NCBI GenBank assembly: GCA_016188865.1
Contig: JACPGX010000002.1
Span: 2,398 to 66,397, forward strand
Direction: 5' to 3'
DNA from: Candidatus Nealsonbacteria bacterium
Lineage (GTDB): Bacteria > Patescibacteriota > Minisyncoccia > Minisyncoccales > MHMH01
Length of the DNA stretch: 64,000 nt
A program made the translations under genes and the position numbers. Below, piece by piece: positions 1 through 62,064 of this stretch. The notes under the pieces were generated by a model, which was not told where the DNA came from, searched no databases, and was given only the letters and a program-made list of their open reading frames with translations. Position 1 is the stretch's first letter; every line of letters begins with the position of its first letter.

Positions 1-70
1 TCCGCCGGCAAATAGTCGAAAAAGCCTTAAAAGCTTTGCAGACAAAAGTTGAAAATCAAACAATCTTCTA
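1..70 (+). CDS. 3' end of an unidentified upstream ORF (partial, runs off the window)
   Basis: Frame open from the window edge, ending ...ALKALQTKVENQTIF then TAA at 68-70, followed by a terminator. Too short to name. Confidence 0.25.
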
Positions 71-71
71 A

Positions 72-95
72 AGCAGCCTTCGGGTTGCTTTTTTC
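72..95 (+). terminator. Rho-independent terminator
   Basis: Stem AGCAGCC / GGTTGCT around loop TTCG, followed by a T-run. Confidence 0.6.
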
Positions 96-154
96 TTTAA
101 TTTTTGTTATTTTTTCTAGACAGTTGCCCTTTAAAAATATTATAGGAGGCGGGA

Positions 155-481
155 ATGATAATAGAAGTGACAAAAGACAATTTCGAAACTGAAGTGCTGA
201 AAGAAACGGGAAAACCGGTAATGGTTGATTTCTGGGGACCTAAATGTTCTCACTGCCTGATTTTAATGCCTCACGTTGAAAAACTGGCCCATCAATATTC
301 AGCTAAGATAAAAGTGGTCAAAATGAATATGACCGGCAACGTTTTGTTTTGCGCAAAAGCCGGATTGAGAATCATGGGCCTGCCTACATTCATCTTTTTT
401 GAAAACGGCAAAGAAGTAAAAAGATTGACCGGGCAGGTAACCGTAGAAGAGCTGGAAAAAACCATGGAGGAAATATTATGA
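155..481 (+). CDS. trxA: Thioredoxin-family protein with an atypical redox motif (W-G-P-K-C-S-H-C)
   Basis: 108 aa with thioredoxin-fold layout (DFWGPKCSHC ... GLPTFIFF). AGGAGG RBS upstream. Stop overlaps the next gene's start (ATGA). Confidence 0.8.
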   Translation: MIIEVTKDNFETEVLKETGKPVMVDFWGPKCSHCLILMPHVEKLAHQYSAKIKVVKMNMTGNVLFCAKAGLRIMGLPTFIFFENGKEVKRLTGQVTVEELEKTMEEIL

Positions 482-1953
482 AGCCGGTAATTAAAAATTA
501 CGCTTATACTATGTATCACGTTCCGAATCTCGTAAGGTACGGCTCGAAACCAATGCGAGAGATAGAAAAAAATCCTGAGCTCTATCCCAAAATTCATGAG
601 CTGCTAAGAAGCTACTTTGAAGCGGTGTCTTATCCGCCTAATCAAGTTTTCATCGGCAACATTAAGCCCGATGATTTGAGAGCAATTCCCAGGCCATGGT
701 TCAAAAATCCTGCCGGCGCTTTTCGCTCCGGAAAATTCGGCGAAATATTTTCAGAAGACGAATTTTTGGGCCTATTAAAAATTGCTGATGTCCATGATTA
801 CGAGTTGATCTGGCTGGAAAAGACTTTTACCGCGCACGTAAAAAATGTTTTAAATGAAAATCCCATACTGCAGGAAACCGATCTCCAGAAAATCGGCGAA
901 GGCAAAAGCATTCAGGAAATAAAAGAAAAATTGGAAAAAGGCGAAAATTTTAGCCTTCCGCTTTTATACGAAAACATTTTGGTAGGGTGCTTCAATCGGT
1001 CAAAAGACGTCCACGCCCAAGAAGATGAGGCCCTAAGCCCCCACCATCTGATGGAAGGGCTTGTTGCCAAAGCCTCGGGAGCTTTAGCCCTAAAACATCT
1101 TATTAGAAGAGAAGGCATTGGTCCTGAAGAAATAGATTTTATTCTTAGCTGTTCGGAAGAAGCCATTGGCGACAGGTACAATCGAGGAGGCGGGAGTTTA
1201 GCCAAAGCTATGGGAGAAATGTGCGGCTGCCAAAATGCAACTGGCTCCGACATTAAATCATTTTGCGTCGGCCCAGTTTATGCTATAGTTTTTGCAGCCA
1301 GTTTGGTTAAAGCAGGGGTCGTTAAAAACGTGGCAGTAGTGGGCGGAGGATGCCTTGCAAAACTTGGAATGAAATTCCAGGGGCACCTTGCAAGCGGCAT
1401 GCCGATTATTGAAGATACCTTGGCGTCATTTGCCTTTCTGATTGCTGGAGATGACAAAAAAAGCCCGATCATCAGGCTGGACGCTATCGGAAAAAATAAT
1501 ATAAAAAACGCTGCGAAACCCGAAAGTGTAACAAGAGCAGTAGTTTTGGAACCGCTGCAAAAATTAGGCAAAAAAATTACCGACATTGATAAGTATGCAG
1601 TGCAGCTGGAAAACCCGGAAATTACAGAACCATCTAAAACCGGCGACGTGCCGAGAAAAAATTACGACACGATTGCGGCTTTAGCAGTTATGAATGGAGA
1701 AATTACTCCGGCCGATATGCCGGCTTTCAGGGAAAAACACGGCATGCCTGGATTTTCGCCAACGCAAGGCCATGTGCCCGCGGCCGTCCCTTATGTCGGA
1801 CACGCAGTGGAGGCAATGGAAAACGGCGAAATTAAAAACGCCATGTTTGTCGCGAGAGGCAGTTTCTTTCTGGGAAGAATGACCCAATTGGAAGACGGAA
1901 TGTCATTTATTATTGAAAAAAATCCGAAAAGAAAGGAGGTGAAAAATGTTTAA
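478..1953 (+). CDS. grdC: Glycine reductase complex component C beta-subunit-like protein (thiolase/FabH-like)
   Basis: The N-terminus (PVIKNYAYTMYHVPNLV...NPELYPKIHELLRSYFEAVSYPPNQVFIGN) matches my recollection of GrdC N-termini. Sits between trx and grdA and is translationally coupled to both. Confidence 0.6.
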   Translation: MKPVIKNYAYTMYHVPNLVRYGSKPMREIEKNPELYPKIHELLRSYFEAVSYPPNQVFIGNIKPDDLRAIPRPWFKNPAGAFRSGKFGEIFSEDEFLGLLKIADVHDYELIWLEKTFTAHVKNVLNENPILQETDLQKIGEGKSIQEIKEKLEKGENFSLPLLYENILVGCFNRSKDVHAQEDEALSPHHLMEGLVAKASGALALKHLIRREGIGPEEIDFILSCSEEAIGDRYNRGGGSLAKAMGEMCGCQNATGSDIKSFCVGPVYAIVFAASLVKAGVVKNVAVVGGGCLAKLGMKFQGHLASGMPIIEDTLASFAFLIAGDDKKSPIIRLDAIGKNNIKNAAKPESVTRAVVLEPLQKLGKKITDIDKYAVQLENPEITEPSKTGDVPRKNYDTIAALAVMNGEITPADMPAFREKHGMPGFSPTQGHVPAAVPYVGHAVEAMENGEIKNAMFVARGSFFLGRMTQLEDGMSFIIEKNPKRKEVKNV

Positions 1954-2419
1954 GGGAAAAAAGATAATAATCTTTGGGGAAAGAGATGAAATTCAGGGCG
2001 CATCAATTGAAAATTGCCTTAAAGCAGCCGGAGTCAAAGAGGAAAACATTATTTCTTCCATAACTGAATGTTTTGTCTGAACAGCGGCTGGGGCAATGAG
2101 TCTGGAATACCAAAACGCCGTCAAAGATCTGGCTTTTAAATATGGGCCAGAAAACTTAGTGGTTATGCTCGGCTTCCTGGATATGGACCTTATTGAAATC
2201 CAGGCCATAACCATGACTGATGGCGATCCTTCCGGAGTTGGCTCATTGTCTGGAGTCGCGTTGCGGCTCAAAGTCTATCATATTCTGGAACCGGAAATAA
2301 AATCGCAGATTCCTCAAGACGTTTATCAGGAACAAATCGGCCTGATGGCAATCACCGCAGGGCCTGAAAAAATAGCAAAAATAAGCGAATTATTGCAACA
2401 ATTAAGAACCACCCGATAG
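1946..2419 (+). CDS. grdA: Glycine/sarcosine/betaine reductase selenoprotein A (GrdA), with in-frame UGA (Sec) at 2078-2080
   Basis: ATG at 1946 after a GGAGGT RBS. Translation MFKGKKIIIFGERDEIQG...ITECFV-U-TAAGAMSLEYQNAVKDL...GDPS..G.L.GV.L.L.VYHILEPE matches the GrdA hallmark CFVUTAAGAM. The ORF track reports only the part after the UGA (2096..2419). Confidence 0.9.
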
Positions 2420-2430
2420 GTGGTTCTTTT
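2406..2430. terminator. Bidirectional terminator between grdA and prs
   Basis: GAACCACC / GGTGGTTC hairpin followed by TTTT. The grdA stop codon (TAG) lies in the loop and stem. Confidence 0.6.
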
Positions 2431-3280
2431 ACTTGAGATTATCGGCAATTAAACGGCTTATATCAACGTTCGCTTCTTTGATTTTAACAGTATTGGTTAA
2501 ATAAAGTTTAAAAAACTTATTTTTCACTCTTTTAACGCCCGCTTTAAAGGGAGCGTGAGTGATTAAAGCAATTACCTTAGAAGCTCCGGAAGCGCTGGCA
2601 TAGTCGTAGAATTTGGAAAGGGTGCCTCCGGTTGCCAGAATGTCATCGATAACACCTATTACTCCTCCCCGAAAAATGATTTGCGATGGATAAAAATCCA
2701 CCCCAAAAGAATCAATCCTCTTTTTGTTTAAACCTGAAATTCCGGTCCTTCTTTTCCCGCCCCTGTCCGGAGACAAAAATAATATATCCTGGCCGAAGTC
2801 TTCTCTGGCTTTTTGCATCAAAAGATGGGCCGCTGAAACGCTTATTACCGGATATTTTTTAAGCCAGGGCATTTTCCCAAAATGCGGATCAATTGCATAA
2901 ATTTTCCTGACCTTGTAATATTTTACTGCTTTTTTTATAAGATTTTCGGCAGCGTTAGTTTCTCCGCGCTGAAATACTTTATCCTGCCGGCTATAGGGAA
3001 AATATGTAAAAAATAACTCTGGCCTTATCTTATGGTCTTTTAAAATTTGCAAAATCAAATCCAATTCCATCAAACCGTTGTTGGGATTGGGAGCTCCCGA
3101 ATGCAAAACAATTATCCTTCTATTTTTAAAACTGTTTATCCCAGATAATCTCATGTAAACTTCCCCGTCGGGAAAAAAACGCTTGCCTTCCTTGTTTTTT
3201 TCGGGAAAAATCAATTCAAAACTTTCTAAGTTTTTCGCCAAATGTTCAGCCGCAGATGTAAAAATTATAAGAGGCCTCAT
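2429..3280 (-). CDS. prs: Ribose-phosphate pyrophosphokinase (PRPP synthetase)
   Basis: Motifs FPDGE, PYSRQDK and the PRPP-binding loop VIDDILATGGT. Confidence 0.8.
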   Translation of the reverse strand: MRPLIIFTSAAEHLAKNLESFELIFPEKNKEGKRFFPDGEVYMRLSGINSFKNRRIIVLHSGAPNPNNGLMELDLILQILKDHKIRPELFFTYFPYSRQDKVFQRGETNAAENLIKKAVKYYKVRKIYAIDPHFGKMPWLKKYPVISVSAAHLLMQKAREDFGQDILFLSPDRGGKRRTGISGLNKKRIDSFGVDFYPSQIIFRGGVIGVIDDILATGGTLSKFYDYASASGASKVIALITHAPFKAGVKRVKNKFFKLYLTNTVKIKEANVDISRLIADNLK

Positions 3281-3810
3281 TAATATTGCAGCAAAGATCT
3301 TATTTTTTGCCCCTTAATATTTTTTCTTCCTTTTAAATAAGTCAACTCAATAAGAAAATTAACTCCCACAATTTTTCCCTTAAGCTGTTTGACTAGATCA
3401 ATAGCGGCTTTCATTGTTCCGCCGGTAGCTAAAACATCGTCAACAATGACAACTTTTTCTCCCGGCAGAATAGCATCTTCATGCATTTCAAGAACATTGC
3501 TGGCATATTCCAGAGAATATTCCCTGGAAACAGTTTTAGCCGGAAGCTTTCCTTTTTTTCTGACAATCGCTAACCCCGTCTTGAATTTATAAGCTGAAGC
3601 GGCAGCCAGTATAAAACCTCTAGCGTCAATGCCGACAATCTTATCAACTTTTTTCCCGGAATAAGGAGCAATCAAAAAATCAATCATTTTATGGAAAAGA
3701 TTCTTATCCTGCAGCAGGGGGGTGATATCTTTAAAATTAACTCCTTTATGCGGCCAATCGGGAATTTCCCTGATTTTAGATTTAATTTCCGAAAGAAGTT
3801 TTGTCCGCAT
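3280..3810 (-). CDS. apt: Adenine phosphoribosyltransferase
   Basis: 176 aa. VVIVDDVLATGGTMKAAIDLV PRTase motif and typical Apt N-terminus (IPDWPHKGVNFKDITPLL). Confidence 0.9.
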   Translation of the reverse strand: MRTKLLSEIKSKIREIPDWPHKGVNFKDITPLLQDKNLFHKMIDFLIAPYSGKKVDKIVGIDARGFILAAASAYKFKTGLAIVRKKGKLPAKTVSREYSLEYASNVLEMHEDAILPGEKVVIVDDVLATGGTMKAAIDLVKQLKGKIVGVNFLIELTYLKGRKNIKGQKIRSLLQY

Positions 3811-3815
3811 TCTAT

Positions 3816-4898
3816 TTAAATCTTAAAACTTTTAAACACCTCTTTGCAAAAATTGTGATTTCTTTTAACTTTTGGTAAAAAATAGAAGTTATCCCTAAGA
3901 TTTTCGTAATCATCTGGGATGATTCCGTATTCTATATCTTTTTTTATTTGCTGAGGCGCCTCAATGCCTCTTACCCACGTTCTAATGGTTGCCCAGTTTA
4001 CTTTTTGATGACGCGATAAGGCCCTAAATGACATTTGCTTCTTTCCAAAAACACGCAAACAATCCCAATATAGATTAGTATCATAAGTGTACTTTCGGAG
4101 GCATCTTACCATCTCTGTTAATTTATTTCTTTTATAAGCAATACTAAAGTTAATCAATTCTCTATACTTTTTAAGGTTACGATACAAAGAAACAACTAAT
4201 TGATCTGGATTATTTTTCTTATGGTATGTCTTGCTTTGAATGCCAAGTTCTAATAATAATTTTTGGATTTTTTTTAAAATTATCTCGTCATTTTGCGTTA
4301 TAACAATTTGATGTCTGTGGTTAGTGTTATCAACGCAACCCTCGGCATCGGCGAATCCTCGAATAAAGTTTGCTTTTACTTTTTTATTTCCATTTATTAT
4401 ATAATTGGGTATTGTTCTAGAATCTCCCATCATCTTTTTAATTCTTTTTACTACCAAAACCCTGTGGACATCGCAAATAAAAATACCCTCTCCTCCTCTA
4501 AGAATTGGTTCTAAACGATAGGCCTTTTTTATATATCTAGCAAATTTATCTCTAAAGTCTTTTTGAGTAACTTTAAGTCGAACGCCATTAGAACTCAGGT
4601 GTCCATCTCCCATCACTGCCCCAATAATATAAGCTTCGGCTACTTTTTCTTCAGTAGAATAAGGATGGTGAAATGATTTTGGTAAATTTTTTTTATTAAA
4701 TCTGCCGCGGAAATATGCAAATTTCTGAGCTTCCGCATTGTCTCTAATTTTTATGCCTGCTTTTCTAAGTTTATTGTAAATAGTTACCTTATTGATACCC
4801 AATTTCTCAGCGATTTCAACGCCAGTCATTCGTTGATAAAGTTTTCCTATGGAAATAGAAAAAGAGTCTTTGGTGTGATTTTGAAGTTTATTTAGCAT
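3816..4898 (-). CDS. Free-standing LAGLIDADG-type homing-endonuclease-like protein with flanking HTH segments
   Basis: Two LAGLIDADG motifs (YIIGAVMGDGHL and FIRGFADAEGCV). N-terminal HTH (VEIAEKLGINKVTIYNKLRKAG) and a C-terminal HTH-like segment. Confidence 0.8.
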   Translation of the reverse strand: MLNKLQNHTKDSFSISIGKLYQRMTGVEIAEKLGINKVTIYNKLRKAGIKIRDNAEAQKFAYFRGRFNKKNLPKSFHHPYSTEEKVAEAYIIGAVMGDGHLSSNGVRLKVTQKDFRDKFARYIKKAYRLEPILRGGEGIFICDVHRVLVVKRIKKMMGDSRTIPNYIINGNKKVKANFIRGFADAEGCVDNTNHRHQIVITQNDEIILKKIQKLLLELGIQSKTYHKKNNPDQLVVSLYRNLKKYRELINFSIAYKRNKLTEMVRCLRKYTYDTNLYWDCLRVFGKKQMSFRALSRHQKVNWATIRTWVRGIEAPQQIKKDIEYGIIPDDYENLRDNFYFLPKVKRNHNFCKEVFKSFKI

Positions 4899-5706
4899 CT
4901 TTAAGAATGTTTCGACAGGGGCAAACCCTCTGAGAAGGAATTTTTAGTATTGATTGCTTAAGAATCTCCCGAAGTTTCACCATATTTGTCTTCATCGTGT
5001 TTAAAATTCTTTCCCAACTGACTTCTCTCCCCGTCTTCCAGACATCCCAATCGGTAACGCTGGCAAGAGATGAATAACAAATTTCCAATTCTCTAGCTAA
5101 ATTGACTTCGGGGATTAGGGTCATACCAACGATATCGGCGAAATTCCTGAAAAACTTTGATTCCGCCTTAGTTGAAAATCTTGGTCCTTCGATGCAAATG
5201 TAAGTTCCATTTTGATGAATAGAAATATTTAATTTTTTACCTGCTTGGTAAAGAAGTCTAGCTAATTCAGGACAAAAAGGATCGGCCGATGTAATATGAA
5301 CTGTCTCCTTGTCGTAAAAAGTATAATCTCTCTTTTTGGTAAAATCGATGAACTGGTCAGAAGTAACAATATCTCCCGGCTTAAATTCCCTTTTAAGGGA
5401 ACCGACTGCTCCGACTCCAATAATTCTTTCCACTCCCAACTTCTTCAAAGCCCAGATATTCGCTCTTTGGGGAACTTTGTGTGGAGGAAACTGGTGTTTT
5501 TTCCCATGGCGGGATAAAAAAGCGACCTTCTTCCCGTGAAAATCAGCGATGGTAATCGGCGATGATGGATAACCGAAAGGAGTTTTGATATTAACCTCTT
5601 TAATCTTTTTGAAGAATTTCGGATCCTCTAATCCGCTTCCGCCAATAATGGCAATTTTGGGATTAGATTTTAAATAATTTTCTGGCATTTTGAGTTGTGG
5701 CATCAA
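4888..5706 (-). CDS. mtnP: S-methyl-5'-thioadenosine / purine nucleoside phosphorylase
   Basis: PNP/MTAP family pattern (IAIIGGSGL ... FLSRHG..H...P..V..RANIWALK.LGV). The start may be a few codons downstream, since the ORF overlaps tatD. Confidence 0.8.
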   Translation of the reverse strand: MMPQLKMPENYLKSNPKIAIIGGSGLEDPKFFKKIKEVNIKTPFGYPSSPITIADFHGKKVAFLSRHGKKHQFPPHKVPQRANIWALKKLGVERIIGVGAVGSLKREFKPGDIVTSDQFIDFTKKRDYTFYDKETVHITSADPFCPELARLLYQAGKKLNISIHQNGTYICIEGPRFSTKAESKFFRNFADIVGMTLIPEVNLARELEICYSSLASVTDWDVWKTGREVSWERILNTMKTNMVKLREILKQSILKIPSQRVCPCRNILKDAK

Positions 5707-6400
5707 TTATTTCTTCATAACTCAAATTTTTAACTTTGGCAATCTTTTCTGCAATATATTTTGTATAAATAGGCTCATTGCGACCGAATACTGAAGGAGG
5801 CGTTAAATATGGGCAGTCCGTTTCCAGTAAAATTTTATCTAAAGGAGCTTTGGCAATAACCTCGTCTAAATTCATCTTGAAAATTATTCCATTAAATCCC
5901 AAATATAGCCCCATATCGATATATCTTTGCGCCTCTCCCCATGTTCCGGTAAAACAATGGATGACTCCTGTTCGAATGTTCGATTGTTCGAGTGTTCGAA
6001 TGAGATCGTTGTGGGCTAATCGGCAATGGAAAATTACCGGCAAATTCACTTCTCTTGCCAACTCCACCTGCCTCAGCAAGACTTCTTTTTGTTTCTCCTT
6101 AAAAGGCAAATATTCTGCTTTATAGTCAAGGCCAATTTCTCCAACTGCCACCGCTGAATTAGCCAGTTCTTTATATTTTTGGTATTCAAACTCCTCTCCC
6201 ACATGAATCGGATGGAGCCCCACTGCCGCATATACCCCTTCTTTATATTTTCCAGCTATTTCCACCGCGCGCTTGCTCGTGGTGTATTGCGAGCCGACAT
6301 TAATCATCCAAATATTTTCAGCCAAAGACCGCCGAATCACTTCTTCGGAATCATCTTTATAGGCGTTGAAATTAACGTGAGCGTGAGTATCGATAATCAT
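5663..6400 (-). CDS. tatD: TatD-family metal-dependent hydrolase
   Basis: MIIDTHAHVNF, GEIGLDY, HCR, HCFTG and ETDCPYL motifs. Confidence 0.85.
   Translation of the reverse strand: MIIDTHAHVNFNAYKDDSEEVIRRSLAENIWMINVGSQYTTSKRAVEIAGKYKEGVYAAVGLHPIHVGEEFEYQKYKELANSAVAVGEIGLDYKAEYLPFKEKQKEVLLRQVELAREVNLPVIFHCRLAHNDLIRTLEQSNIRTGVIHCFTGTWGEAQRYIDMGLYLGFNGIIFKMNLDEVIAKAPLDKILLETDCPYLTPPSVFGRNEPIYTKYIAEKIAKVKNLSYEEIIDATTQNARKLFKI
5969..6000. repeat. Octanucleotide tandem repeat (TGTTCGAN x4) inside tatD
   Basis: tgttcgaa tgttcgat tgttcgag tgttcgaa. Encodes IRTLEQSNIRTG in the variable linker of TatD. Confidence 0.9.
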
Positions 6401-6476
6401 ACTTAAAATATTAACAAAAATTTATACAAATAAAAGGGGGGTCGTCTAAGACTATACCCCCCTTTTGCCGAATTTT

Positions 6477-7124
6477 TTATGGAAATTCTACGCGAGGACA
6501 ATACTTTTTGTAGAATACGTGCACCATTAAAGCAATGGTGTATATTATATCTTTAATTCCCCTAAATAATACCTTAAGAACTGTCCATGGCAAGAAAAGT
6601 ATCTTGCGAATGACGGATGATCGTCTCGGCTTTGCTTGTTTTGAGGCCGACACTGCCAGTCGTTTTTCATGTTTTCTCTGTTTTTCTTCTTCTTTTTCCA
6701 AATACCACCTTGTATGTTTAACTCTTTCGATCGCAAATGATATTGCAAACGGTAAACTGATAAATGCTATGACAGCGCCTAACCATATCAGCGTTTTCAG
6801 CCAATCTTCCCTTGCCAAAACTACTATCAAACCAAGGAGTGTCAATCCGACCAGCACATAAAACAACACTAGTAGAATTTTGCCCGTTACTCTCATCGGC
6901 TTGCTGCCAAAGAATCTGCGAGCGCGGCCTTGGCCGAAAACCAATCTGATGAGCCAGCCCAATAAAACAACCGGCAAACCGGGGACTATCCCCACAAAAG
7001 CTACCCAGAAGGGACCGCAGAAATTAGCCGGCCAAGGATGGGGAACCGTTGCGCCAAATCCTCCGGCAACAAATCTGTAAACTGCCCCGATAACGGCAAC
7101 TATCCAATCAGGAACTCTATGCAT
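6477..7124 (-). CDS. Hypothetical multi-pass membrane protein
   Basis: Several hydrophobic helices plus a K/E/R-rich segment. No recognisable family. Confidence 0.5.
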   Translation of the reverse strand: MHRVPDWIVAVIGAVYRFVAGGFGATVPHPWPANFCGPFWVAFVGIVPGLPVVLLGWLIRLVFGQGRARRFFGSKPMRVTGKILLVLFYVLVGLTLLGLIVVLAREDWLKTLIWLGAVIAFISLPFAISFAIERVKHTRWYLEKEEEKQRKHEKRLAVSASKQAKPRRSSVIRKILFLPWTVLKVLFRGIKDIIYTIALMVHVFYKKYCPRVEFP

Positions 7125-7192
7125 TTCTTGCTCCTCCTATATTATATTTATTACTAAGAAAGTGTACCAAAAAATAATAATTCTGTCAAGGT

Positions 7193-8344
7193 CTAAAGTT
7201 TGCCAACTAAAATATCTTTTCTGATTTTTTGCATTAAACCGAGAGTGAAATAAAGATTATGAATAGTGGCTAATCTATAATATAGGAGTTCTTTGGCTCT
7301 AAAAAGATGCGATAAATAAGCCCGGGTGAAATTTTGACAGGTATAACAACCGCACTTCTTCTCAATGGCATGGAAATCTTTAATATATCGGGAATTTCCT
7401 ATATTCAAGCGGCCATTTTTTATCAGTAAAGTTCCTCTTCTGGCTAATCTTGTGGGCCAGACGCAATCAAATAGATCCATACCGTGCTTTACGCAATTTT
7501 CCAAATCTTCCGGCCGGCCTATACCCAAAAGATGGCGAGGTTTTTCTTCAGGCAATAATGGCGTAATCCACTTTAAAATTTTAAACATGTCTTTTTGTGT
7601 TTTTCCCAAAGAACCGCCAATGCCAATGCCATCAAAAGGCAAGGATGAAATGAATTTAGTGCTTTCTTCTCTTAAATCTTTATACTCTCCGCCTTGGATT
7701 ATCCCAAACAAAGCCTGTTCCCGCTTTTTTTTAACCTTTAAGCACCGCAAGGCCCAATTATGCGTTTTTTTTAAAGATTTTTTAGTATATTCATAATCAG
7801 CTAAAGGAGAGGTGCATTCGTCAAAGGCAAAAATAATATCGGCTCCCAAATCTTCTTGTATTTTAATGGATTTTTCCGGAGTAAAAATATGCTTTGAGCC
7901 GTCTAAATGAGAGGTAAATTCTACGCCATCGTCAGTAATTTTTACCAATTTAAGAGGTCCGACCTCCCGAGGAGGTCGGACCTCCTCATATCCCGGAAAC
8001 CACCCAATTTTTCCTATCTGGTGTACCTTGCCCCAGCCTAAAGAAAAAACTTGAAAACCTCCGCTGTCAGTAACCATCGGTCCCGGCCAGTTCATGAATT
8101 TATGGAGCCCGCCGGCTTTTTTTATAACATCCGCTCCCGGTCTCAAATAAAGATGATAAGTATTGGCTAAAATAATTTCGGCTCCCAAATTTTTCAAGTC
8201 TTCGGGCGTTAAACTCTTAACGCTGGCTTGCGTAGCTACTGAAACAAAAGCAGGAGTTTCAATCCTGCCGTGAGGCGTCTCTAAAATACCAGCTCTCGCC
8301 CAAGACTTCTTAGATTTTTTAACAATTTTAAATCTAAATTGCAT
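7193..8344 (-). CDS. tgt: Queuine tRNA-ribosyltransferase (tRNA-guanine transglycosylase)
   Basis: TPAFVSVATQASVK, VTDSGGFQVFSL and the C-terminal Zn motif CGCYTC. Confidence 0.9.
   Translation of the reverse strand: MQFRFKIVKKSKKSWARAGILETPHGRIETPAFVSVATQASVKSLTPEDLKNLGAEIILANTYHLYLRPGADVIKKAGGLHKFMNWPGPMVTDSGGFQVFSLGWGKVHQIGKIGWFPGYEEVRPPREVGPLKLVKITDDGVEFTSHLDGSKHIFTPEKSIKIQEDLGADIIFAFDECTSPLADYEYTKKSLKKTHNWALRCLKVKKKREQALFGIIQGGEYKDLREESTKFISSLPFDGIGIGGSLGKTQKDMFKILKWITPLLPEEKPRHLLGIGRPEDLENCVKHGMDLFDCVWPTRLARRGTLLIKNGRLNIGNSRYIKDFHAIEKKCGCYTCQNFTRAYLSHLFRAKELLYYRLATIHNLYFTLGLMQKIRKDILVGKL
7954..7985. repeat. GC-rich palindromic element (short form), in-frame inside tgt
   Basis: GAGGTCCGACCTCC-cga-GGAGGTCGGACCTCC. 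Read on the minus strand it encodes EEVRPPREVGPLK. Confidence 0.85.
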
Positions 8345-19098: not shown

Positions 19099-22000
19099 TT
19101 ATAATTTCTTCACCGCAAGACTAAGTTTTTGCCGATCAACATTTATTTCCTTCTCGCCTTTACCCGGCTTAAAATCCTTAGCCTTAATTTCAGATAAAAT
19201 AAACTTTTTATTTTTACCTAAAATTCTATTTAATTCTGACGCACCGGAATACTGGACAAAAATTTTATCTTTTGGCTTAAAGCCGGCTTCCTTTCTCATC
19301 TCATTAATCTGGCGAATAACTTCTCGAATAATTCCCTCTTCTTTAAGCTCTGGGGTAATTTTCGTATCCAATATTAAAATATTGCTGAAAATAATTTTCT
19401 TGACGTTAACTTCTTCTTTTATGAACTCTGATAAACCTTTCTCCATTTTCTCGGGAATCACAAGAGAAGTTAGGGGTTGGCGAACTTTTATGCCAGTCTT
19501 AGCTCTTTCGGCCAAGGCCAAAGCCACAATTTCCCTGACCCTCGTCATTTTCTGATTTAATTTTTTATTAATCAATTTTTTATTAGCCTTGGGCCAATCA
19601 GCCAAGTGGATACTGCGAGAACGCTTCTCGTAATGACGAGAAACGTTCTCGTAAATTTGCTCGGAGAGGAAAGGAATAAAGGGGGCGGTTAATTTTGAAA
19701 CCGTTTGAAGAACCAAGGTCAGAGTGCCGACAGCTTCGTTAAAACGCTTGCGCGACCTTCTGATATACCACAAAGACAGATCGTTAACCACAAAATCTTC
19801 AATAGCTCTGGCCGCTCCTGTTACGTCGTATTTATCAAGATTATAAGTAGTTTCTGCAATTAACTCATTTAATCGGGAAACCACCCACTTATCTAATAAG
19901 TTTTTAGTTTTTAGTTTATAGTTTGTAGTTTTAATATTATAAGTTTTGTAGAAAGTAAAACAATTCCACAAAATCAAAATAAACTTTTTCAAAGCTTGGT
20001 CTATGTCTTTTTCTGTAAAAAGTTTTGAATCGCCGGACTGATTAACTGTGTAAAAATACCACCTAACAGCGTCGGCGCCATATTTTTCAACAATATACCA
20101 AGGGTCAACGACATTGCCCCTTGATTTTGACATTTTCTCTCCTTTCTCGTCTAAAACATGGCCAGTAGAAATTACATTTTTATAGGGCGCGCCTTTTCCC
20201 AAAAGTGTGGAAACCGCCAAAAGTGTATAGAACCAGCCGCGAGTCTGATCGATAGCCTCTGAAATATAATCAGCTGGAAATATGGCTCCGGAAGCGAACG
20301 GCATACTGCCCGAATCAAACCAAACATCGCAAACTTCCGAAACCCTTGCCATTTTTTCTCCGCATTTAGAGCAATAGAATTTAATTTCATCTATATAAGG
20401 CCGATGAAAATCAACCCTCCCCTCTTTATCCAGGGGTAAATTTTTAAAATCCAGCTTGCGCCACTCTCCGGTCTTTATGTCTTTTTTAGCTAATTTTATT
20501 TTCAATAATTTTTCGTCAGACAAACCCTTGACTGCTCCTTCTAAAAGCCACAATGGATCGCAATGGCTGACAATTAAAATAGTTTTATTTTTATGCTTTT
20601 GATCAATATCGCTTATAAAGCTCATCATTCTTTTTCTAACTTCGCCCCAATTTTCCCCGCCTTCGGGCTTTCTCCCGTAAAAACTGTCTACGCTTTTCGG
20701 AAAATCTTTAAAATATTTTTCTTTCTTTTTACCCTGATAAATGCCAAAATTCATATCTCTTAAGCGCATATCAGAAATTATTTCTGCGCCAAGTTCTTCA
20801 TTAACGAGCTGGGCTGTCTGACGGGTTCTGTTCATATCTGAAAAATAAATTATATCTATTTTCTTTATTTTAAGTTCTTTAGCGGCTTTTCTTACATCGC
20901 TCTCCCCACCCTTGCTTAATAATATGGGACTTTTTTCCGGCCAAGGATAAATATAATCTCCATTATTAACCTGATGGTTATTTTGGCCGTGCCGCATAAT
21001 ATAATATTTATTGGCTGAAAATTTTTGACCCAATAAATCATTTTTACCACCGATAACTTCCTTGAGCCCGCAACTCTGACAGCTCCAAATCGGCAAAGGT
21101 GTTCCCCAATATCTCTCTCGGGAAAAAGCCCAATCTTTCAGTTCTTTTAGCCACTCGCCGAATCTCCCGTCTTTTAAATGCGAGGGCACCCAATTGATTT
21201 TTTGGTTGTTGCCGATCAGGTCTTTTTTTACGTCCTGCATTTTTATAAACCAGCTCTCTTTGGCGTAATAAAGAAGCGGCGATTTGCAGCGCCAGCAGAA
21301 AGGATAATCATGCTCGTATAATTCTTCTTTAAAAAGAACTCCCCTCTCCTGCAGGTCTTTAATAATCAACGGGTCCGCATCTTTAACAAACATTTCATTC
21401 CACTCATAATCCGGCGTTATCATTTTGCCTTCTTCATTAACGGTCACTAATACTGGCAAATTATTCTCTTTTCCTACCTTCATATCATCCTCGCCAAAAG
21501 CCGGAGCAATATGCACCAAACCTGTACCGTCTTCCATGGAAACAAAATCGCCGGCAACTACGCGATATTTCGATGTCCGACCTCCCGACAAATCTGACGG
21601 GAGATCGGACATCCCAAATATCCGTTCATATTCTAATCCAATTAAGTCCCTACCCTTAAATTCTCCAACGATTTCTCCAACTATGCCGACTGGCTTCATT
21701 CTATCTTTAGCTAAAATCAGATATTCCTCACCAACTTTTATTTTTACATAAGTAAATTCCGGGTTTACCGCTACCGCAACATTCCCGGGCAAAGTCCAGG
21801 GCGTCGTCGTCCACACGAGCAAAGAAGAGTCCTTGAATTTTAAATTTTTAATCTTAAATCTTACATAAATTGAATTTTCTTCAATTCTTTTGTACCCCTG
21901 CGCCACTTCATGGGAAGACAAACTTGTCCCACACCTCGGACAATACGGCACTACTTTGTAATCTTTGTACAAAAGCCCTTTTTGATAAATTTGTTTTACT

Positions 22001-22467
22001 ATCCACCATAAAGTTTCGATATATTCATTTTCATAGGTGACATAAGGGTGCTCCATATCTAACCAATAGCCAATCCTTTCGGTTAATTTCTCCCAATCTC
22101 GCTTGTATTGCCAAACCGATTCTTTGCATTGCTTATTGAATTCAGCGATACCATATCTTTCAATGTCTTTTTTATTTTTTAAGCCCAGCTTTTTCTCAAC
22201 TTCCAGTTCTACGGGCAAACCATGGGTATCCCAGCCGGCTTTTCTCAAAACCCTAAAACCCTGCATGGTCTTATAGCGGCAAATAATATCTTTGAAGGCG
22301 CGGCTTAAAACATGATGAATACCCGGCTTCCCATTAGCCGTCGGCGGTCCCTCGTAAAACACAAAATCCCGCGCCCTAGCGCGCTGTTTGATGCTTTTCT
22401 CAAAAATCTTCTTTTCTTTCCAGAACTTCAATATCTCTTCTTCTTTCTGGGAAAAATTTAACTCCAT
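19099..22467 (-). CDS. ileS: Isoleucyl-tRNA synthetase (type 2) with an inserted histidine-phosphatase domain
   Basis: HIGH (PPTANGKPGIHHVLSR), KMSKS, editing-domain TTPWTLPGN and WFDSG motifs. A PGAM-type domain sits at about aa 486-686 (YIMRHGQ ... IVSHCDPL). Confidence 0.95.
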   Translation of the reverse strand: MELNFSQKEEEILKFWKEKKIFEKSIKQRARARDFVFYEGPPTANGKPGIHHVLSRAFKDIICRYKTMQGFRVLRKAGWDTHGLPVELEVEKKLGLKNKKDIERYGIAEFNKQCKESVWQYKRDWEKLTERIGYWLDMEHPYVTYENEYIETLWWIVKQIYQKGLLYKDYKVVPYCPRCGTSLSSHEVAQGYKRIEENSIYVRFKIKNLKFKDSSLLVWTTTPWTLPGNVAVAVNPEFTYVKIKVGEEYLILAKDRMKPVGIVGEIVGEFKGRDLIGLEYERIFGMSDLPSDLSGGRTSKYRVVAGDFVSMEDGTGLVHIAPAFGEDDMKVGKENNLPVLVTVNEEGKMITPDYEWNEMFVKDADPLIIKDLQERGVLFKEELYEHDYPFCWRCKSPLLYYAKESWFIKMQDVKKDLIGNNQKINWVPSHLKDGRFGEWLKELKDWAFSRERYWGTPLPIWSCQSCGLKEVIGGKNDLLGQKFSANKYYIMRHGQNNHQVNNGDYIYPWPEKSPILLSKGGESDVRKAAKELKIKKIDIIYFSDMNRTRQTAQLVNEELGAEIISDMRLRDMNFGIYQGKKKEKYFKDFPKSVDSFYGRKPEGGENWGEVRKRMMSFISDIDQKHKNKTILIVSHCDPLWLLEGAVKGLSDEKLLKIKLAKKDIKTGEWRKLDFKNLPLDKEGRVDFHRPYIDEIKFYCSKCGEKMARVSEVCDVWFDSGSMPFASGAIFPADYISEAIDQTRGWFYTLLAVSTLLGKGAPYKNVISTGHVLDEKGEKMSKSRGNVVDPWYIVEKYGADAVRWYFYTVNQSGDSKLFTEKDIDQALKKFILILWNCFTFYKTYNIKTTNYKLKTKNLLDKWVVSRLNELIAETTYNLDKYDVTGAARAIEDFVVNDLSLWYIRRSRKRFNEAVGTLTLVLQTVSKLTAPFIPFLSEQIYENVSRHYEKRSRSIHLADWPKANKKLINKKLNQKMTRVREIVALALAERAKTGIKVRQPLTSLVIPEKMEKGLSEFIKEEVNVKKIIFSNILILDTKITPELKEEGIIREVIRQINEMRKEAGFKPKDKIFVQYSGASELNRILGKNKKFILSEIKAKDFKPGKGEKEINVDRQKLSLAVKKL
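19901..19935. repeat. Heptanucleotide tandem repeat (TTTNTAG-like x5) inside ileS
   Basis: tttttag tttttag tttatag tttgtag ttttaat. Encodes YNIKTTNYKLKTKNL. Confidence 0.75.
21572..21613. repeat. Palindromic element (diverged full-length copy), in-frame inside ileS
   Basis: GATGTCCGACCTCCCGACAAATCTGACGGGAGATCGGACATC. Encodes MSDLPSDLSGGRTS on the minus strand. Confidence 0.8.
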
Positions 22468-23196: not shown

Positions 23197-23769
23197 TTAT
23201 ATTTTAAAAATTTCCCTTAGAAAATCATCATTTTCTATATTCTCGGCGGTGATTAAACGAACTTCGCGCTGTCCCAACCCAAAGAACTCCCTCAATAACT
23301 CTACCTCATCTTTGCAGGGATAAGGATTAATCCAAACGCTTTTCTGCAAAGGCAAAAAACCTAATTCCCTTAATTTTCCCCTGAAAGCATTCCGTTGTAG
23401 ATTTTTAAGCTGAATGATATCAAAAATTACTATTCGCCATTTTTTATCCCATTTTTTCGGCTTATTTATATTCAAACTGTCAATTTGAAACCTGCCGGCC
23501 AATTTTCTCCCTTTTTCCGTCAAAGAAATATAAATTTGATGATTTTTATTTATAATTTTAATACATCCTTGCCTTCTAAGATTATAAAAGGTGTCGGAAA
23601 CTTTTTTCGCTTTATACTTGTCTTTATTTTGAAATCCTTTAATAATATTCGTGGCAAAATGGGGAGAGGTAGCAGCGATGCAAACCGCACCGGCAACGGC
23701 CAGCCACTTAAAAACATCTTTGGTGATTTCTGATTTCGGTTTTCTAAAATAATATTTATATTTACTCAT
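23197..23769 (-). CDS. PaaX-like / Cas2-fold domain protein with N-terminal hydrophobic segment and wHTH-like middle (paralogue 1)
   Basis: KWRIVIFDI...LRNAFRGKLRELGF.PLQKSVWINPY resembles the Cas2-like ferredoxin-fold core of PaaX-family proteins. Paralogue at 62063..62635. Confidence 0.6.
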   Translation of the reverse strand: MSKYKYYFRKPKSEITKDVFKWLAVAGAVCIAATSPHFATNIIKGFQNKDKYKAKKVSDTFYNLRRQGCIKIINKNHQIYISLTEKGRKLAGRFQIDSLNINKPKKWDKKWRIVIFDIIQLKNLQRNAFRGKLRELGFLPLQKSVWINPYPCKDEVELLREFFGLGQREVRLITAENIENDDFLREIFKI

Positions 23770-25521: not shown

Positions 25522-25833
25522 GTGGAAAGTATAATTGTCATACTCGTAGTTGCAGTTTCGTTTTTCATCATACCTATAGTCGTATTAATAGCAAACCAAA
25601 CTCATCCTAAGCCCAAGAAACCAAAAATCCTCTATTACAGACGGGAGCCAAATCCTAATGCTAGCTGGGATATTGCAAACCCCTATGACTACATTCCCGT
25701 TTATGAAGAGCAGAACGACAAAAATGTTTTAATCAACCCCTGGGAACCGGTGGATATTCCGAAAGAAAAAAGCGATAAACAAAATCACCCAATCAATCCC
25801 TGGGAAAAGAAAGTTTTGGAGGCAGGAAAATGA
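25522..25833 (+). CDS. Tail-family protein P1: single-pass membrane protein ending in the double-NPWE tail
   Basis: GTG start. One N-terminal TM followed by KPKKPK (tail predicted cytoplasmic). C-terminus is INPWEPVDIPKEKSDKQNHPINPWEKKVLEAGK. Stop overlaps the P2 start (ATGA). Confidence 0.65.
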   Translation: MESIIVILVVAVSFFIIPIVVLIANQTHPKPKKPKILYYRREPNPNASWDIANPYDYIPVYEEQNDKNVLINPWEPVDIPKEKSDKQNHPINPWEKKVLEAGK

Positions 25834-26327
25834 AACAAGATAGTGTTTTAACCGAAATGATTATAAAATTGTTAATAATTCTCTATAAAATATTTATTTT
25901 TTGGCCAATAAGGATTATCATTGCGCTTATTTACTACTTTATTCTTTACCCCTGGTTGGCTGCAATAAATGGTAAAGGCATAGATCCTCCCTTTGAAGCT
26001 TTAGCTTTGGATGATATGGATAGTTGTATATGCGCGCTCGTGGCGGACTTTTTTGTGATGATAACGATGATAATTATGCTGTACCAGAGTGCTCTTTGGG
26101 CGCCATTGGGCTATTTTATCTTCCGATTATTTTCTTATTTAGTTCCGTTGGCTTACTGCAAAGTGAAAGAGGAACAAATTTCTCTCCAGTCGCAACCCAA
26201 ACCTCAAGTGCAGTCTCAACCCAAGGCAACCAACCCCTGGGAGCCGGTGGATATTCCGAAAGAAAAAAATGATAAACAAAATCCCCCGATTAATCCATGG
26301 GAAAAGAAAGTTATAGAAATTAACTAA
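25830..26327 (+). CDS. Tail-family protein P2: multi-pass membrane protein ending in the double-NPWE tail
   Basis: Three to four TM segments. C-terminus is TNPWEPVDIPKEKNDKQNPPINPWEKKVIEIN. Confidence 0.7.
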   Translation: MKQDSVLTEMIIKLLIILYKIFIFWPIRIIIALIYYFILYPWLAAINGKGIDPPFEALALDDMDSCICALVADFFVMITMIIMLYQSALWAPLGYFIFRLFSYLVPLAYCKVKEEQISLQSQPKPQVQSQPKATNPWEPVDIPKEKNDKQNPPINPWEKKVIEIN

Positions 26328-26331
26328 CAAA

Positions 26332-26351
26332 GAGCCTCAACAAAGAGGCTC
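26332..26351 (+). terminator. Hairpin after P2 (GAGCCTC / GAGGCTC), duplicated after P3
   Basis: Same hairpin and flanks as 26852-26873. The T-run is weak. Confidence 0.4.
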
Positions 26352-26369
26352 CTTAATCAGCTGGACGGA

Positions 26370-26398
26370 TTGAACGAATGGGTGCGGGTGTATATTGT
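26370..26398 (+). promoter_or_regulatory. Putative promoter of P3 (TTGAAC-N17-TATTGT)
   Basis: TTGAACgaatgggtgcgggtgtaTATTGT, 30 nt upstream of the 26429 ATG. Confidence 0.35.
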
Positions 26399-26428
26399 AA
26401 TGTTGTACAAGAAATGAAGGGGGAAAGG

Positions 26429-26910: not shown

Positions 26911-26971
26911 AATGCGTCTGAATGATTCAGATATTTTTGAGTACTTTAAAAATAAGGCGGGGAGGGCGAAT

Positions 26972-28672: not shown

Positions 28673-28675
28673 AAA

Positions 28676-31305: not shown

Positions 31306-31380
31306 CAATTGCACAGGGGTTGATTTTTATTCAATCTTTGATAATCTCTTGAGAGGACTTTGACAATAAGGGAGGATGGG

Positions 31381-32421
31381 ATGAGGGCGATAGTTAAAAC
31401 TAAAATGGCGCCGGGAGCGGAATTGTTAGATATTCCCATTCCAATGCCGAAGCCAGATGAGGTTTTGGTTAAAATGAAGGCTGTTTCCATTTGCGGCACG
31501 GATGTCCATATATATGAATGGGATTCAGCCGCACAGATGTATATAAAAAATGTCCCGCAAATAATGGGCCATGAATTTGCCGGAGAAATCGTTGAAGTCG
31601 GCAAAAAGGTAAAAAAATTCAGAGTTGGCGACTATGTTTCTGCCGAAACCCATATTTTTTGCGGTAAATGCCTGCAGTGCAAAAACAATCAAAAAAACAT
31701 TTGCGAAAAAGGAGAAATTTTCGGCTTAACCTGCGACGGCTGTTTTGCCGAATACGCGGCAATTCCGGAAATAATCATTTGGAAAAATAACCCGCAGCTT
31801 CCGCCGGAAATAGCCACCCTGCAAGAACCTTTGGGAAATGCAATTTACTGCTCTCTTGCCAATGATAAAAATCTGAATGGGAAAAAAGTGCTGATTATAG
31901 GCGACGGCCCAATCGGCTTGCTGGCAACTGGCGTCTGCTATGCCGAGGGGGCAGAAACGGTTGTTCTTGTTGGCTTGGAAGAAGAACGGCTGAAAATCGC
32001 AAGGCGGATGGGCGCTTTCACGCTCAACGGCGAAAATCCTAACGCGACAAAAATCCTCTTGGATTTCACCAATAAAAGAAAATTTGACGTTGCTCTAGAA
32101 ATGGCTGGAAATGCAAAGGCTAGCGCCATGGCTCTTAACATGGTAAGAAATGGCGGCAGAATGTCGGCCTTTGGCATTTACGGCGGACCATTCTTTATAG
32201 AAAACTATGGAAATTTTGTCAGGAGCGGCATAGAAATACAGGCAATATCCGGCCGAAGAATCTGGCAAACATGGAAAGAAACAAGAAGATTGCTGGAATC
32301 GGGGCTTCTTGATATTACTCCGATTATCACGCATAAACTGCCCTTGGCGGAATTTCAAAAAGGTTTTGATTTAATGATTAAAAGGCCGAAAGTTTCGGGA
32401 AAAGTAATTTTGCTCCCATAG
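31381..32421 (+). CDS. tdh: L-threonine 3-dehydrogenase (Zn-dependent MDR family)
   Basis: ATG at 31381 after AAGGGAGGA. ICGTDVHIYEWD and GHEFAGEIVEVG motifs. Followed by kbl. Confidence 0.85.
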   Translation: MRAIVKTKMAPGAELLDIPIPMPKPDEVLVKMKAVSICGTDVHIYEWDSAAQMYIKNVPQIMGHEFAGEIVEVGKKVKKFRVGDYVSAETHIFCGKCLQCKNNQKNICEKGEIFGLTCDGCFAEYAAIPEIIIWKNNPQLPPEIATLQEPLGNAIYCSLANDKNLNGKKVLIIGDGPIGLLATGVCYAEGAETVVLVGLEEERLKIARRMGAFTLNGENPNATKILLDFTNKRKFDVALEMAGNAKASAMALNMVRNGGRMSAFGIYGGPFFIENYGNFVRSGIEIQAISGRRIWQTWKETRRLLESGLLDITPIITHKLPLAEFQKGFDLMIKRPKVSGKVILLP

Positions 32422-32430
32422 GAGGCGGCA

Positions 32431-33657
32431 ATGTACGAAAAAGGGTTTCAAGATTATCTTCAAAAAGAATTATCCGGCATTCAAGAAAACGGATTGTTCA
32501 AAGAAGAGTGGGCAATTTCTTCTCCGCAAGGAGCAAAGATTATAGTTGATGGCAAAACAATGCTCAACTTCTGCGCCAACAATTATCTCGGGCTGGCAAA
32601 TGACTGGAGATTAAAAATTGAGGCAATATCAGCTATTTTGAAGCGGGGCTACGGCTTAGCTTCAGTGCGTTTTATATGCGGCACGCAGGATATCCATAAA
32701 GAATTAGAAAAAAAGATTTCTGAATTTTTAATAAAAGAAGATACTATTCTTTATTCTTCCTGCGCCGCAGCTAATGAGGGAATCTTTGAAGTTTTGCTGA
32801 ATCATGAAGACGCCGTAATTTCCGATTGGCTAAACCACGCCACGATTATTGACGGCATTAGGCTCTGGCAAAGAATCCACGCCAAGAAACTTCCTGACGG
32901 CAGATATGAACTGCCGACCAGCAGAGTTTACAAACACATGGATATGGATGACCTGGAAAAAGGTCTTCGGGAAACTAAAGATAAACGCTTCAGGGTCATT
33001 GTTACTGACGGCGTATTCAGTATGGACGGCGATATTGCGCCCCTCAAAGAAATCTGCGGCTTGGCTGAAAAATACAATGCCTTAGTGATGGTTGACGATA
33101 GCCATGCCACGGGATTTATTGGAAAAACAGGCCGCGGCACGCCGGAATACTGCGGAGTAATGAATAAAGTTGATATTATTACCAGCACTATGGGCAAAGC
33201 TTTAGGCGGAGCTGCTGGAGGATTTGTCAGCGCTAAAAAAGAAATTGTGGAAATTCTAAGGCAGAGATCGCGACCCTATCTTTTCTCCAATACATTGCCG
33301 GCTGTGATCGTCGCTGTCACCATCAAAGTTCTTGATATGATTAAGGATAACACTGAGTTGAGAGATAAATTGGAAACAAATACTACTTACTTTAGAAAAA
33401 AAATCAGGGAATTGGGTTTTGATGTCAGAACGGGAACCCACCCCATAGTCCCGATTATGCTGTATGACGCCAAAAAGGCAGCGGAAATGGCTATCAGGTT
33501 GAAGCAGGGGGGAATTTATGTCAAAGCTTTCAGCTATCCAGTTGTCCCCGAAGGCCAAGCTAGAATTAGAGTACAAGTCTCAGCTGCCCACACCAGAAAA
33601 GATTTAGATTCAGCTCTGGAAAAATTCGCCAAAGTAAAAAATAAACCGCAATCGTAA
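32431..33657 (+). CDS. kbl: Glycine C-acetyltransferase (2-amino-3-ketobutyrate CoA ligase)
   Basis: Alpha-oxoamine synthase pattern (NNYLGL, DDSHATG, PLP-lysine context TSTMGKALGG). Operon partner of tdh. Confidence 0.9.
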   Translation: MYEKGFQDYLQKELSGIQENGLFKEEWAISSPQGAKIIVDGKTMLNFCANNYLGLANDWRLKIEAISAILKRGYGLASVRFICGTQDIHKELEKKISEFLIKEDTILYSSCAAANEGIFEVLLNHEDAVISDWLNHATIIDGIRLWQRIHAKKLPDGRYELPTSRVYKHMDMDDLEKGLRETKDKRFRVIVTDGVFSMDGDIAPLKEICGLAEKYNALVMVDDSHATGFIGKTGRGTPEYCGVMNKVDIITSTMGKALGGAAGGFVSAKKEIVEILRQRSRPYLFSNTLPAVIVAVTIKVLDMIKDNTELRDKLETNTTYFRKKIRELGFDVRTGTHPIVPIMLYDAKKAAEMAIRLKQGGIYVKAFSYPVVPEGQARIRVQVSAAHTRKDLDSALEKFAKVKNKPQS

Positions 33658-62028: not shown

Positions 62029-62064
62029 AACGTACAATTCAAACCATGGTTTCAATCTTACGTT
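62029..62064. promoter_or_regulatory. CCATGG-type 36-bp palindrome (copy L2), overlapping the stop of PaaX-like paralogue 2
   Basis: AACGTACAATTCAAACCA|TGGTTTCAATCTTACGTT. Confidence 0.6.

Follow-up and report, generated by a model that had tools for sequence, protein, structure and literature searches.

Does a glycine reductase gene that is interrupted by an in-frame TGA codon, and split accordingly in its GenBank record, encode a single selenoprotein in a bacterium of the candidate phyla radiation (CPR)? The question is raised by a stretch of 64,000 nucleotides (the window; contig JACPGX010000002.1 of assembly GCA_016188865.1, positions 2,398 to 66,397 of the forward strand) from a CPR metagenome-assembled genome (MAG) assigned to Candidatus Nealsonbacteria. 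Positions 1946 to 2419 of the window very probably constitute one functional gene for GrdA, selenoprotein A of glycine reductase, in which the UGA codon at 2078-2080 is read as selenocysteine (Sec, U); we infer that the residue at position 44 is Sec and not another amino acid. The features of the gene are as follows.

1946..2419, + strand: full-length grdA (selenoprotein A of glycine reductase), 157 codons including Sec44, stop codon TAG at 2417-2419; from the translation, hidden Markov models (HMMs) and the ratio of nonsynonymous to synonymous substitutions (dN/dS)
2078..2080, + strand: in-frame UGA, the putative Sec codon (Sec44); from the sequence and homologues
2069..2080, + strand: CxxU redox motif Cys41-Phe-Val-Sec44 (TGT TTT GTC TGA); from the sequence and the GrdA motif listing in PMC9312934
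2096..2419, + strand: false open reading frame (ORF) of 107 amino acids, whose ATG is the conserved Met of TAAGAM and not a start codon; GenBank MBI2450178.1
1934..1939, + strand: Shine-Dalgarno sequence AGGAGG, 6 nt before the grdA ATG; read from the sequence
2407..2430, + strand: hairpin AACCACC-CGATA-GGTGGTT (2407-2425) followed by CTTTT, with the stop codon TAG in the loop; read from the sequence

A first-pass annotation, made by a model from the letters of the DNA and a list of its ORFs, had proposed that grdA starts at ATG 1946 behind a ribosome-binding site, overlaps the stop codon of grdC and runs for 157 codons with the TGA inside the motif TECFV-U-TAAGAM. This reading holds in every part: the Shine-Dalgarno sequence is in place, the ATG (1946-1948) lies within an 8-nt overlap with grdC, whose stop codon TAA is at 1951-1953, and the translation of 1946-2419 gives 157 positions with a single internal stop, in ...SSITECFV(stop)TAAGAMSLEYQNAVKDL... 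The split that it had ascribed to the ORF caller is likewise found, both in the mechanical ORF list (1946..2080, 44 amino acids, and 2096..2419, 107 amino acids) and in GenBank, which has two proteins, MBI2450177.1 (44 amino acids, "hypothetical protein HYV47_01420") and MBI2450178.1 (107 amino acids, "hypothetical protein HYV47_01425"). The hairpin at 2407..2430 is the likely intrinsic terminator of the operon; a scan for terminator consensus features did not flag it.

Comparison with the GrdA family, which had been suggested as a check, was carried out with U replaced by C in the product. The Pfam family GRDA (PF04723) matched residues 2-145 with 158.8 bits (cut-off, 22; E value, 1e-46), and the NCBIfam equivalog model for selenoprotein A, NF040748, gave 160.7 bits (curated cut-off, 130). 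Since the match crosses the TGA uninterrupted, the codon is not a chance stop, and the assignment of the product to GrdA is secure. The locus combines this full-length family match with a CxxU motif whose U is encoded by TGA, and with GrdB/GrdE, GrdC and thioredoxin encoded alongside.

A single conserved in-frame TGA

Read with genetic code 11, the window has 67 ORFs (19,848 codons), and 92.8% of it is coding. These ORFs end in TAA (48), TAG (10) or TGA (9), several of the TGA stops being placed in ATGA stop-start overlaps; one of them is the stop of the thioredoxin gene (TGA at 479-481, overlapping the grdC start at 478), to which the first-pass annotation had pointed as evidence that TGA serves as a genuine stop here. 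Reading past the TGA stops meets the next stop within 2 to 17 codons in eight of nine cases. The other ORFs, with 19,848 codons, have no internal TGA, not even in the 1122-codon gene of isoleucyl-tRNA synthetase (IleRS), and among the conserved genes of the window only grdA has one. Reassignment of TGA under code 25 or code 4 is ruled out by its use as a stop, as had been argued before, and by the lack of internal TGA elsewhere; a code of this kind, as in Gracilibacteria and Absconditabacteria, would bring frequent in-frame TGA within conserved genes and ORFs fragmented under code 11, neither of which the window shows. TGA is thus an ordinary stop codon in the window, and its recoding is specific to the site. 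The ninth TGA stop, the only one whose read-through runs on, belongs to a 586-amino-acid VWA-domain ORF (26912-29218, + strand) and stands in frame with the next ORF (TGA AAA ATG...), probably by chance.

The codon is conserved. TGA occupies the Sec44 position in about 68 distinct grdA homologues, all adjoining relatives of GrdC, and none of them has TGT or TGC. Nine of these homologues belong to a clade of low GC content (0.39-0.47), made up of loci L002, L092, L093-96, L097, L098, L099/100, L101-103 and L104; their GrdA proteins are 56-80% identical to that of the window, and all are split into 43-46 plus about 105-128 codons. Compared with seven clade members, the window gene gave dN/dS values of 0.05-0.17 upstream of the TGA (43 codons) and 0.08-0.30 downstream of it (approximately 112 codons); both halves of grdA are under purifying selection. 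In the five-codon spacer that leads from the TGA to ATG 2096 (T-A-A-G-A), the third positions have 3, 4, 4, 3 and 2 different states, while positions 1 and 2 are invariant in four of the five, and this periodicity indicates that the spacer evolves as coding sequence in the grdA frame. Six full-length GrdA proteins were found in databases: four (P0004, P0007, P0008 and P0012) have W at the Sec position, presumably because TGA was translated as Trp, and not as a stop, when the genes were called under a code such as 4, and the other two (P0005 and P0006) have C. A survey from 2006 knew of no Cys-containing GrdA homologues (PMC1794560).

If the TGA terminated translation, the gene would be broken, being either a pseudogene or the source of separate polypeptides of 44 and 107 amino acids. 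The two ORFs of the gene callers and of GenBank (MBI2450177.1 and MBI2450178.1) would fit this, as would the purine-rich GGGG before ATG 2096. But the TGA stands exactly at the Sec position of GrdA, dN/dS is low and similar on both halves (0.05-0.30), the spacer between them evolves as coding sequence in the same frame, the arrangement is kept in about 68 distinct homologues, and a protein without residue 44 would have no carboxymethyl acceptor, given the chemistry of GrdA (PMC13188914). The first-pass annotation had named Cys-carrying orthologues together with other disabling lesions as signs of a pseudogene; TGY is found in none of the approximately 68 homologues, and grdA has no lesion besides the TGA. 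We regard a broken gene as extremely improbable.

The grd cluster and its host lineage

GrdA is encoded at the end of a five-gene cluster in the order grdE-grdB-trxA-grdC-grdA, with an in-frame TGA in both grdB and grdA, one hairpin (70-91) between grdB and trxA and another (2407-2425), followed by a T-run, after grdA. The remaining features of the cluster within the window, and a pair of genes downstream, are listed here.

1..71, + strand: 3' end of grdB (selenoprotein B), last 23 codons, stop codon TAA at 69-71; the rest lies upstream of the window
70..91, + strand: terminator-like hairpin and T-run after grdB, separating grdE-grdB from trxA-grdC-grdA
155..481, + strand: trxA (thioredoxin, reductant of oxidised GrdA), ending in TGA; Pfam Thioredoxin E value 1.2e-23 and NCBIfam matches
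478..1953, + strand: grdC (component C subunit beta), sharing its last 8 nt with grdA; NCBIfam NF040746, 612 bits (cut-off, 450)
31360..33657, + strand: tdh and kbl (threonine to glycine and acetyl-CoA); Kbl, NF005394, 577 bits (cut-off, 460); Tdh, NF003808, 371 bits (cut-off, 380)

The upstream genes were read from a public short-read assembly contig (L001) that is identical to window positions 1-7983 and extends 2532 nt further upstream; the assembly contigs covering the cluster end 74 nt upstream of grdE. On this contig, grdB occupies positions 1314-2603 and has its in-frame TGA at 2346-2348, in ...LITSN(stop)GSCTRCGATLAKE... (UxxCxxC). Like grdA, it is a selenoprotein gene divided by an in-frame TGA, and it had gone unseen in the first-pass annotation. 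The codon and the hairpin that follows it lie at least 187 nt upstream of the window start. The reconstructed GrdB scored 601 bits with TIGR01918 (cut-off, 65) and 590.8 bits with TIGR01917, below the cut-off of 602.2. With the motif regular expressions of Nobu et al. (PMC9751293), the pattern for glycine-specific GrdB matched and that for the sarcosine protein GrdF did not, and GrdB is therefore predicted to be of the glycine-specific type. No trxB was found at the locus. The tdh-kbl pair lies 29 kb downstream of the grd cluster on the same contig, and a serine hydroxymethyltransferase gene adjoins the operon in one clade member. In GenBank, GrdC is annotated as "glycine reductase" (MBI2450176.1); its gene and the two halves of grdA are on one contig of 196,235 nt. 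As a separate observation, grdC stands without an adjoining grdD in the window and in all related environmental loci (L002-L104, 80+).

The nearest species representative, L002 (Ca. Nealsonbacteria, a GTDB representative), agrees with the window in gene order and in both in-frame TGAs, and its GrdC is 71% identical to that of the window. Downstream of the cluster, the genes for MTAP, TatD, Tgt, MetRS, RsmI, AI-2E and M16 are common to the window and L101/L102, and partly to L002. Identity between genomes is 65-74% for the Grd proteins and 61-84% for flanking housekeeping proteins, GC content is 0.41 in the first 4 kb and 0.37-0.42 across the window, and independent assemblies of at least five sequencing runs contain the same junctions. 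To judge from these comparisons, the operon is resident in the lineage, since synteny is shared, the Grd proteins have diverged like housekeeping proteins and GC content is flat.

These observations bear on another explanation, in which the cluster does not belong to a CPR bacterium and the contig is chimeric or mis-binned, the operon coming from an ordinary Sec-using anaerobe. The closest GrdC relatives outside the clade (55-57% identity) are indeed on contigs of higher GC content, and genes of the tricarboxylic acid (TCA) cycle type, unusual for CPR, lie just beyond the window. Against such an origin speak the uniform GC content, the recovery of the same junctions from independent runs, the grd-MTAP-TatD-Tgt-MetRS-RsmI synteny common to L002 and L101/L102, and the match in divergence between Grd and flanking proteins, and we consider it very unlikely.

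A gene for a free-standing LAGLIDADG homing endonuclease (3816-4898, - strand) separates apt from MTAP; L002 has none at the equivalent site, and L101/L102 are without prs, apt and the endonuclease.

SECIS elements and selenocysteine machinery

Sec insertion sequence (SECIS) elements were sought with our own implementation of the bSECISearch model, using the bacterial criteria in PMC13188914: an upper stem of 4-16 bp, a loop of 3-9 nt with G in its first two positions, a spacing of 16-37 nt and a minimum free energy (MFE) of -7.5 kcal/mol or lower. The grdB gene has an element that passes these criteria, the hairpin GCGUUGC-GGC-GCAACGC (L001 2360-2376), 11 nt after the UGA. In 36 distinct sequences, 90% of its cells are paired, as good a value being reached by 0 of 500 shuffles, and both the closing pair (GC in 18, UA in 13 and AU in 2) and the inner pair (UA in 31 and CG in 5) covary. 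Rfam SECIS_4 (RF01990) aligns with it end to end, including CGUUGC-GGN-GCAACG; this is a feature of grdB and not of grdA. The score is 33.6 bits here (threshold, 38) and 59 and 54 bits in two clade members.

By their proteins, the grdA relatives fall into two groups, one with A[LF]D..GQ (48 sequences) and the other, which includes the window clade, with AM[DSG]x[ED][NY]Q. The first group, which we call class I, has a 7-bp hairpin, YUUGAYY-N5-RRUCARR, at +19 to +37 from the grdA TGA; it is 100% paired in 48 distinct sequences (L074, L020, L024 and 45 others), shows ten CG-to-UA compensatory changes, and passes the SECIS criteria in 47 of the 48 sequences. No Rfam family matches this hairpin.

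Several negative results weigh against a functional selenoprotein GrdA in the window. Downstream of the grdA UGA, neither the window nor six clade members showed a hairpin complying with the criteria, even when energy, stem length and spacing were relaxed, and the Rfam SECIS families gave no match on 1900-2450 at E values up to 10. The class I hairpin was tried on the window clade and rejected, 39.8% of its cells being paired, as in shuffles. Searches for tRNA-Sec with ARAGORN and Rfam returned only tmRNA and tRNA-Arg from the 64-kb window, and none of selA, selB, selD and tRNA-Sec was found in the window, in the approximately 10 kb beyond its end or in the clade loci. The tblastn queries, run against these same targets, were SelD (an approximate Escherichia coli sequence and then the SelD of L024) and the SelA of L024, a locus in which tRNA-Sec-selD-selA-selB adjoins grd; the same procedure detected selD and selA in two loci outside the clade. 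A database search with SelA matched only close relatives of the query (WOR-3 and Dehalococcoidia) and was uninformative. Finally, grdD, queried with a Brachyspira protein (NF040747, 549 bits), had no tblastn match in the window or in 80+ related loci. In the classical enzyme, protein C has GrdD as its catalytic subunit; of the two subunits, GrdC is present here and GrdD was not found in the loci searched, and grdD adjoins grdC only in two Brachyspira loci.

That no SECIS could be folded by eye after the grdA UGA had already been stated in the first-pass annotation, and the computation agrees in finding no consensus-type hairpin. Neither the folding of 2078-2140, which it had suggested, nor that of 2060-2160 yielded a significant hairpin (z-scores, +1.3 and -1.1), but this single-sequence test is uninformative, because the well-supported SECIS of grdB itself has a shuffle z-score of only -0.09. 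The criteria are also left unsatisfied by a control, L105, a low-GC grdA of the classical type (...TECFV-U-TAAGAMDLENQ...), which makes the missing grdA SECIS weak evidence. In sum, grdB here and all but one of the 48 class I grdA genes conform to the bSECISearch model, whereas grdA of the window, of six clade members and of L105 does not; some genuine selenoprotein genes do not fit the SECIS model, according to a review from 2026 (PMC13188914).

Two structures may serve as leads and stand as unproven candidates. The first was obtained with RNAalifold.

2064..2100, + strand: candidate non-canonical helix, 2064-2074 pairing with 2090-2100; RNAalifold on nine clade sequences

It would hold the UGA in a 15-nt loop and is paired in 89% of cells, with one covarying pair, but these figures come from the alignment that yielded the helix itself; G-U pairs abound in the helix, and its energy equals that of shuffles (single-sequence z-score, 0.07). 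The second, a hairpin at 2128-2150, can be recognised in every clade member, in one register or another; it lies about 50 nt from the UGA, outside the range of 16-37 nt, and its pairs are largely fixed by Leu-Ala and Gly-Pro codons. Two further structures were rejected: an RNAalifold candidate in grdA (C11-G28/G13-U26/G14-C25/R15-Y24) did no better than shuffles (313/500), and a long-range stem in the MFE structure of the window (GCGGC/GCCGU) is, by inspection, not conserved in L002 or L092.

The UGA might be translated as something other than Sec, by a near-cognate tRNA (Trp or Cys) or a lineage-specific suppressor, in a lineage that lost or never had the Sec machinery. Such a lineage would account for the lack of Sec machinery in about 75 kb of the genome and of a consensus SECIS after the grdA UGA, and the Cys residues of P0005 and P0006 suggest that a thiol form may exist. 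Yet grdB keeps a canonical, covarying SECIS recognised by Rfam SECIS_4, which would be purposeless without SelB; TGA is kept in nine diverged clade members, though TGY and TGG are one base change away; and the SECIS test also fails on L105, so that its failure here counts for little. Read-through without Sec is improbable in our judgement. With UGA read as Sec, we infer that the genome carries selABCD.

The wider proposition, that a CPR lineage (Ca. Nealsonbacteria and relatives) uses Sec, gains ATP by glycine reduction and recodes the grdA UGA without a consensus SECIS, is doubtful as a whole, and we put it forward tentatively. Recoding of this kind could rely on a weak SECIS of a new class (the helix 2064-2074/2090-2100), on the hairpin about 50 nt downstream or on a SelB with relaxed RNA requirements.

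Proposed glycine reduction in a CPR bacterium

From what is established about glycine reductase chemistry (see the summary in PMC13188914), a catalytic cycle can be proposed for the Grd system encoded here. Translation of grdA, coupled with the end of grdC, would begin at ATG 1946, would insert Sec at the UGA and would end at TAG 2417-2419, giving 157 residues. GrdB/GrdE would bind glycine, release ammonia and hand the carboxymethyl group to Sec44 of GrdA, and Cys41 would then resolve the selenoether. GrdC would take the acetyl group and yield acetyl phosphate for ATP synthesis, and the thioredoxin encoded two genes upstream of grdA would re-reduce the Se-S bond of GrdA. Glycine could be supplied from threonine via tdh-kbl; the serine hydroxymethyltransferase beside the operon in one clade member is also a plausible source.

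In its HMM family, its TGA-encoded CxxU motif and its flanks of the type TECFV-U-TAAGAM-x-LE-x-Q, the window GrdA is the same as clostridial GrdA, and the partners are the same as well (a Sec-containing GrdB with UxxCxxC, GrdE, GrdC and thioredoxin). Two in-frame TGA codons have been reported for the grdAB operon of Clostridium litorale (Kreimer and Andreesen 1995, as cited in PMC13188914). The window cluster differs from the clostridial one in its order, grdE-grdB-trxA-grdC-grdA, with no grdD or trxB found at the locus, and in its host, clostridial-type systems being hosted by Firmicutes, Spirochaetes and Synergistetes. Its GrdA is about 40-57% identical to GrdA proteins outside the clade.

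The window cluster also resembles the GrdEBCA clusters known from MAGs of subsurface and serpentinite environments (PMC9469722 and PMC9751293), which are likewise compact, with thioredoxin, a glycine-type GrdB and no grdD; the 80 metagenome loci examined are of this kind. In these MAGs, selA/selB are often in the cluster, whereas the Nealsonbacteria clade has no sel gene nearby, and most GrdEBCA relatives have the strong 7-bp SECIS hairpin in grdA that is absent from the window clade. In the Lost City study of subsurface MAGs, the Patescibacteria MAGs are stated to have been without all of the key metabolic genes charted, including those for glycine use. A limited literature search found nothing linking selenocysteine or glycine reductase to CPR, Patescibacteria, Parcubacteria or Nealsonbacteria. 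The splitting of selenoprotein genes by gene callers and the pair of in-frame TGAs in grdA and grdB are already known; what is new, within the literature searched, is the host lineage.

Other genes of the region were noted in passing. The IleRS gene (19099-22467, - strand) encodes an inserted histidine-phosphatase domain (His_Phos_1, residues 488-661, E value 3.6e-33) that splits the class I catalytic domain. Three adjacent small ORFs of 103, 165 and 156 amino acids (25522-26848, + strand) have the C-terminal motif ...NPWEKKV... in common and no obvious function. Genes of archaeal or eukaryotic flavour encode a PHP-domain EndoQ-like protein, an Elp3-like radical SAM/GNAT enzyme, RtcB with archease, and PolX (the set is at 44915-46180, 51461-53017, 58049-59494, 60991-61398 and 39139-40863). 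At 35571-36395 (- strand), a dual-specificity/tyrosine phosphatase domain is fused with a prokaryotic diacylglycerol kinase domain. Two paralogous PaaX_M-domain proteins (23197-23769 and 62063-62635, - strand) have near-identical N-termini (MSKYKYYF...), and a third copy is present in L101. L088, which covers about 10 kb beyond window position 64000, continues the contig with part of a TCA set, which is out of the ordinary for a CPR genome: genes for 2-oxoacid:ferredoxin oxidoreductase, succinyl-CoA synthetase, succinate dehydrogenase/fumarate reductase and fumarase.

In metabolic terms, CPR bacteria are regarded as minimal fermenters. The deposited genome holds a key gene of energy metabolism as two "hypothetical proteins", and the same split is found in every relative examined, so that automated metabolic reconstructions of these CPR genomes will overlook a complete glycine reductase. 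The conserved five-gene selenoenzyme cluster, together with a threonine-to-glycine route on the same contig, suggests amino-acid-based substrate-level phosphorylation, possibly a threonine-fed energy route of the Stickland type. The cluster would also imply investment in Sec machinery in at least one CPR lineage. Within this one operon, grdB has a textbook SECIS while none can be recognised on grdA, a contrast that may serve as a small test case for the amount of RNA structure that SelB requires.

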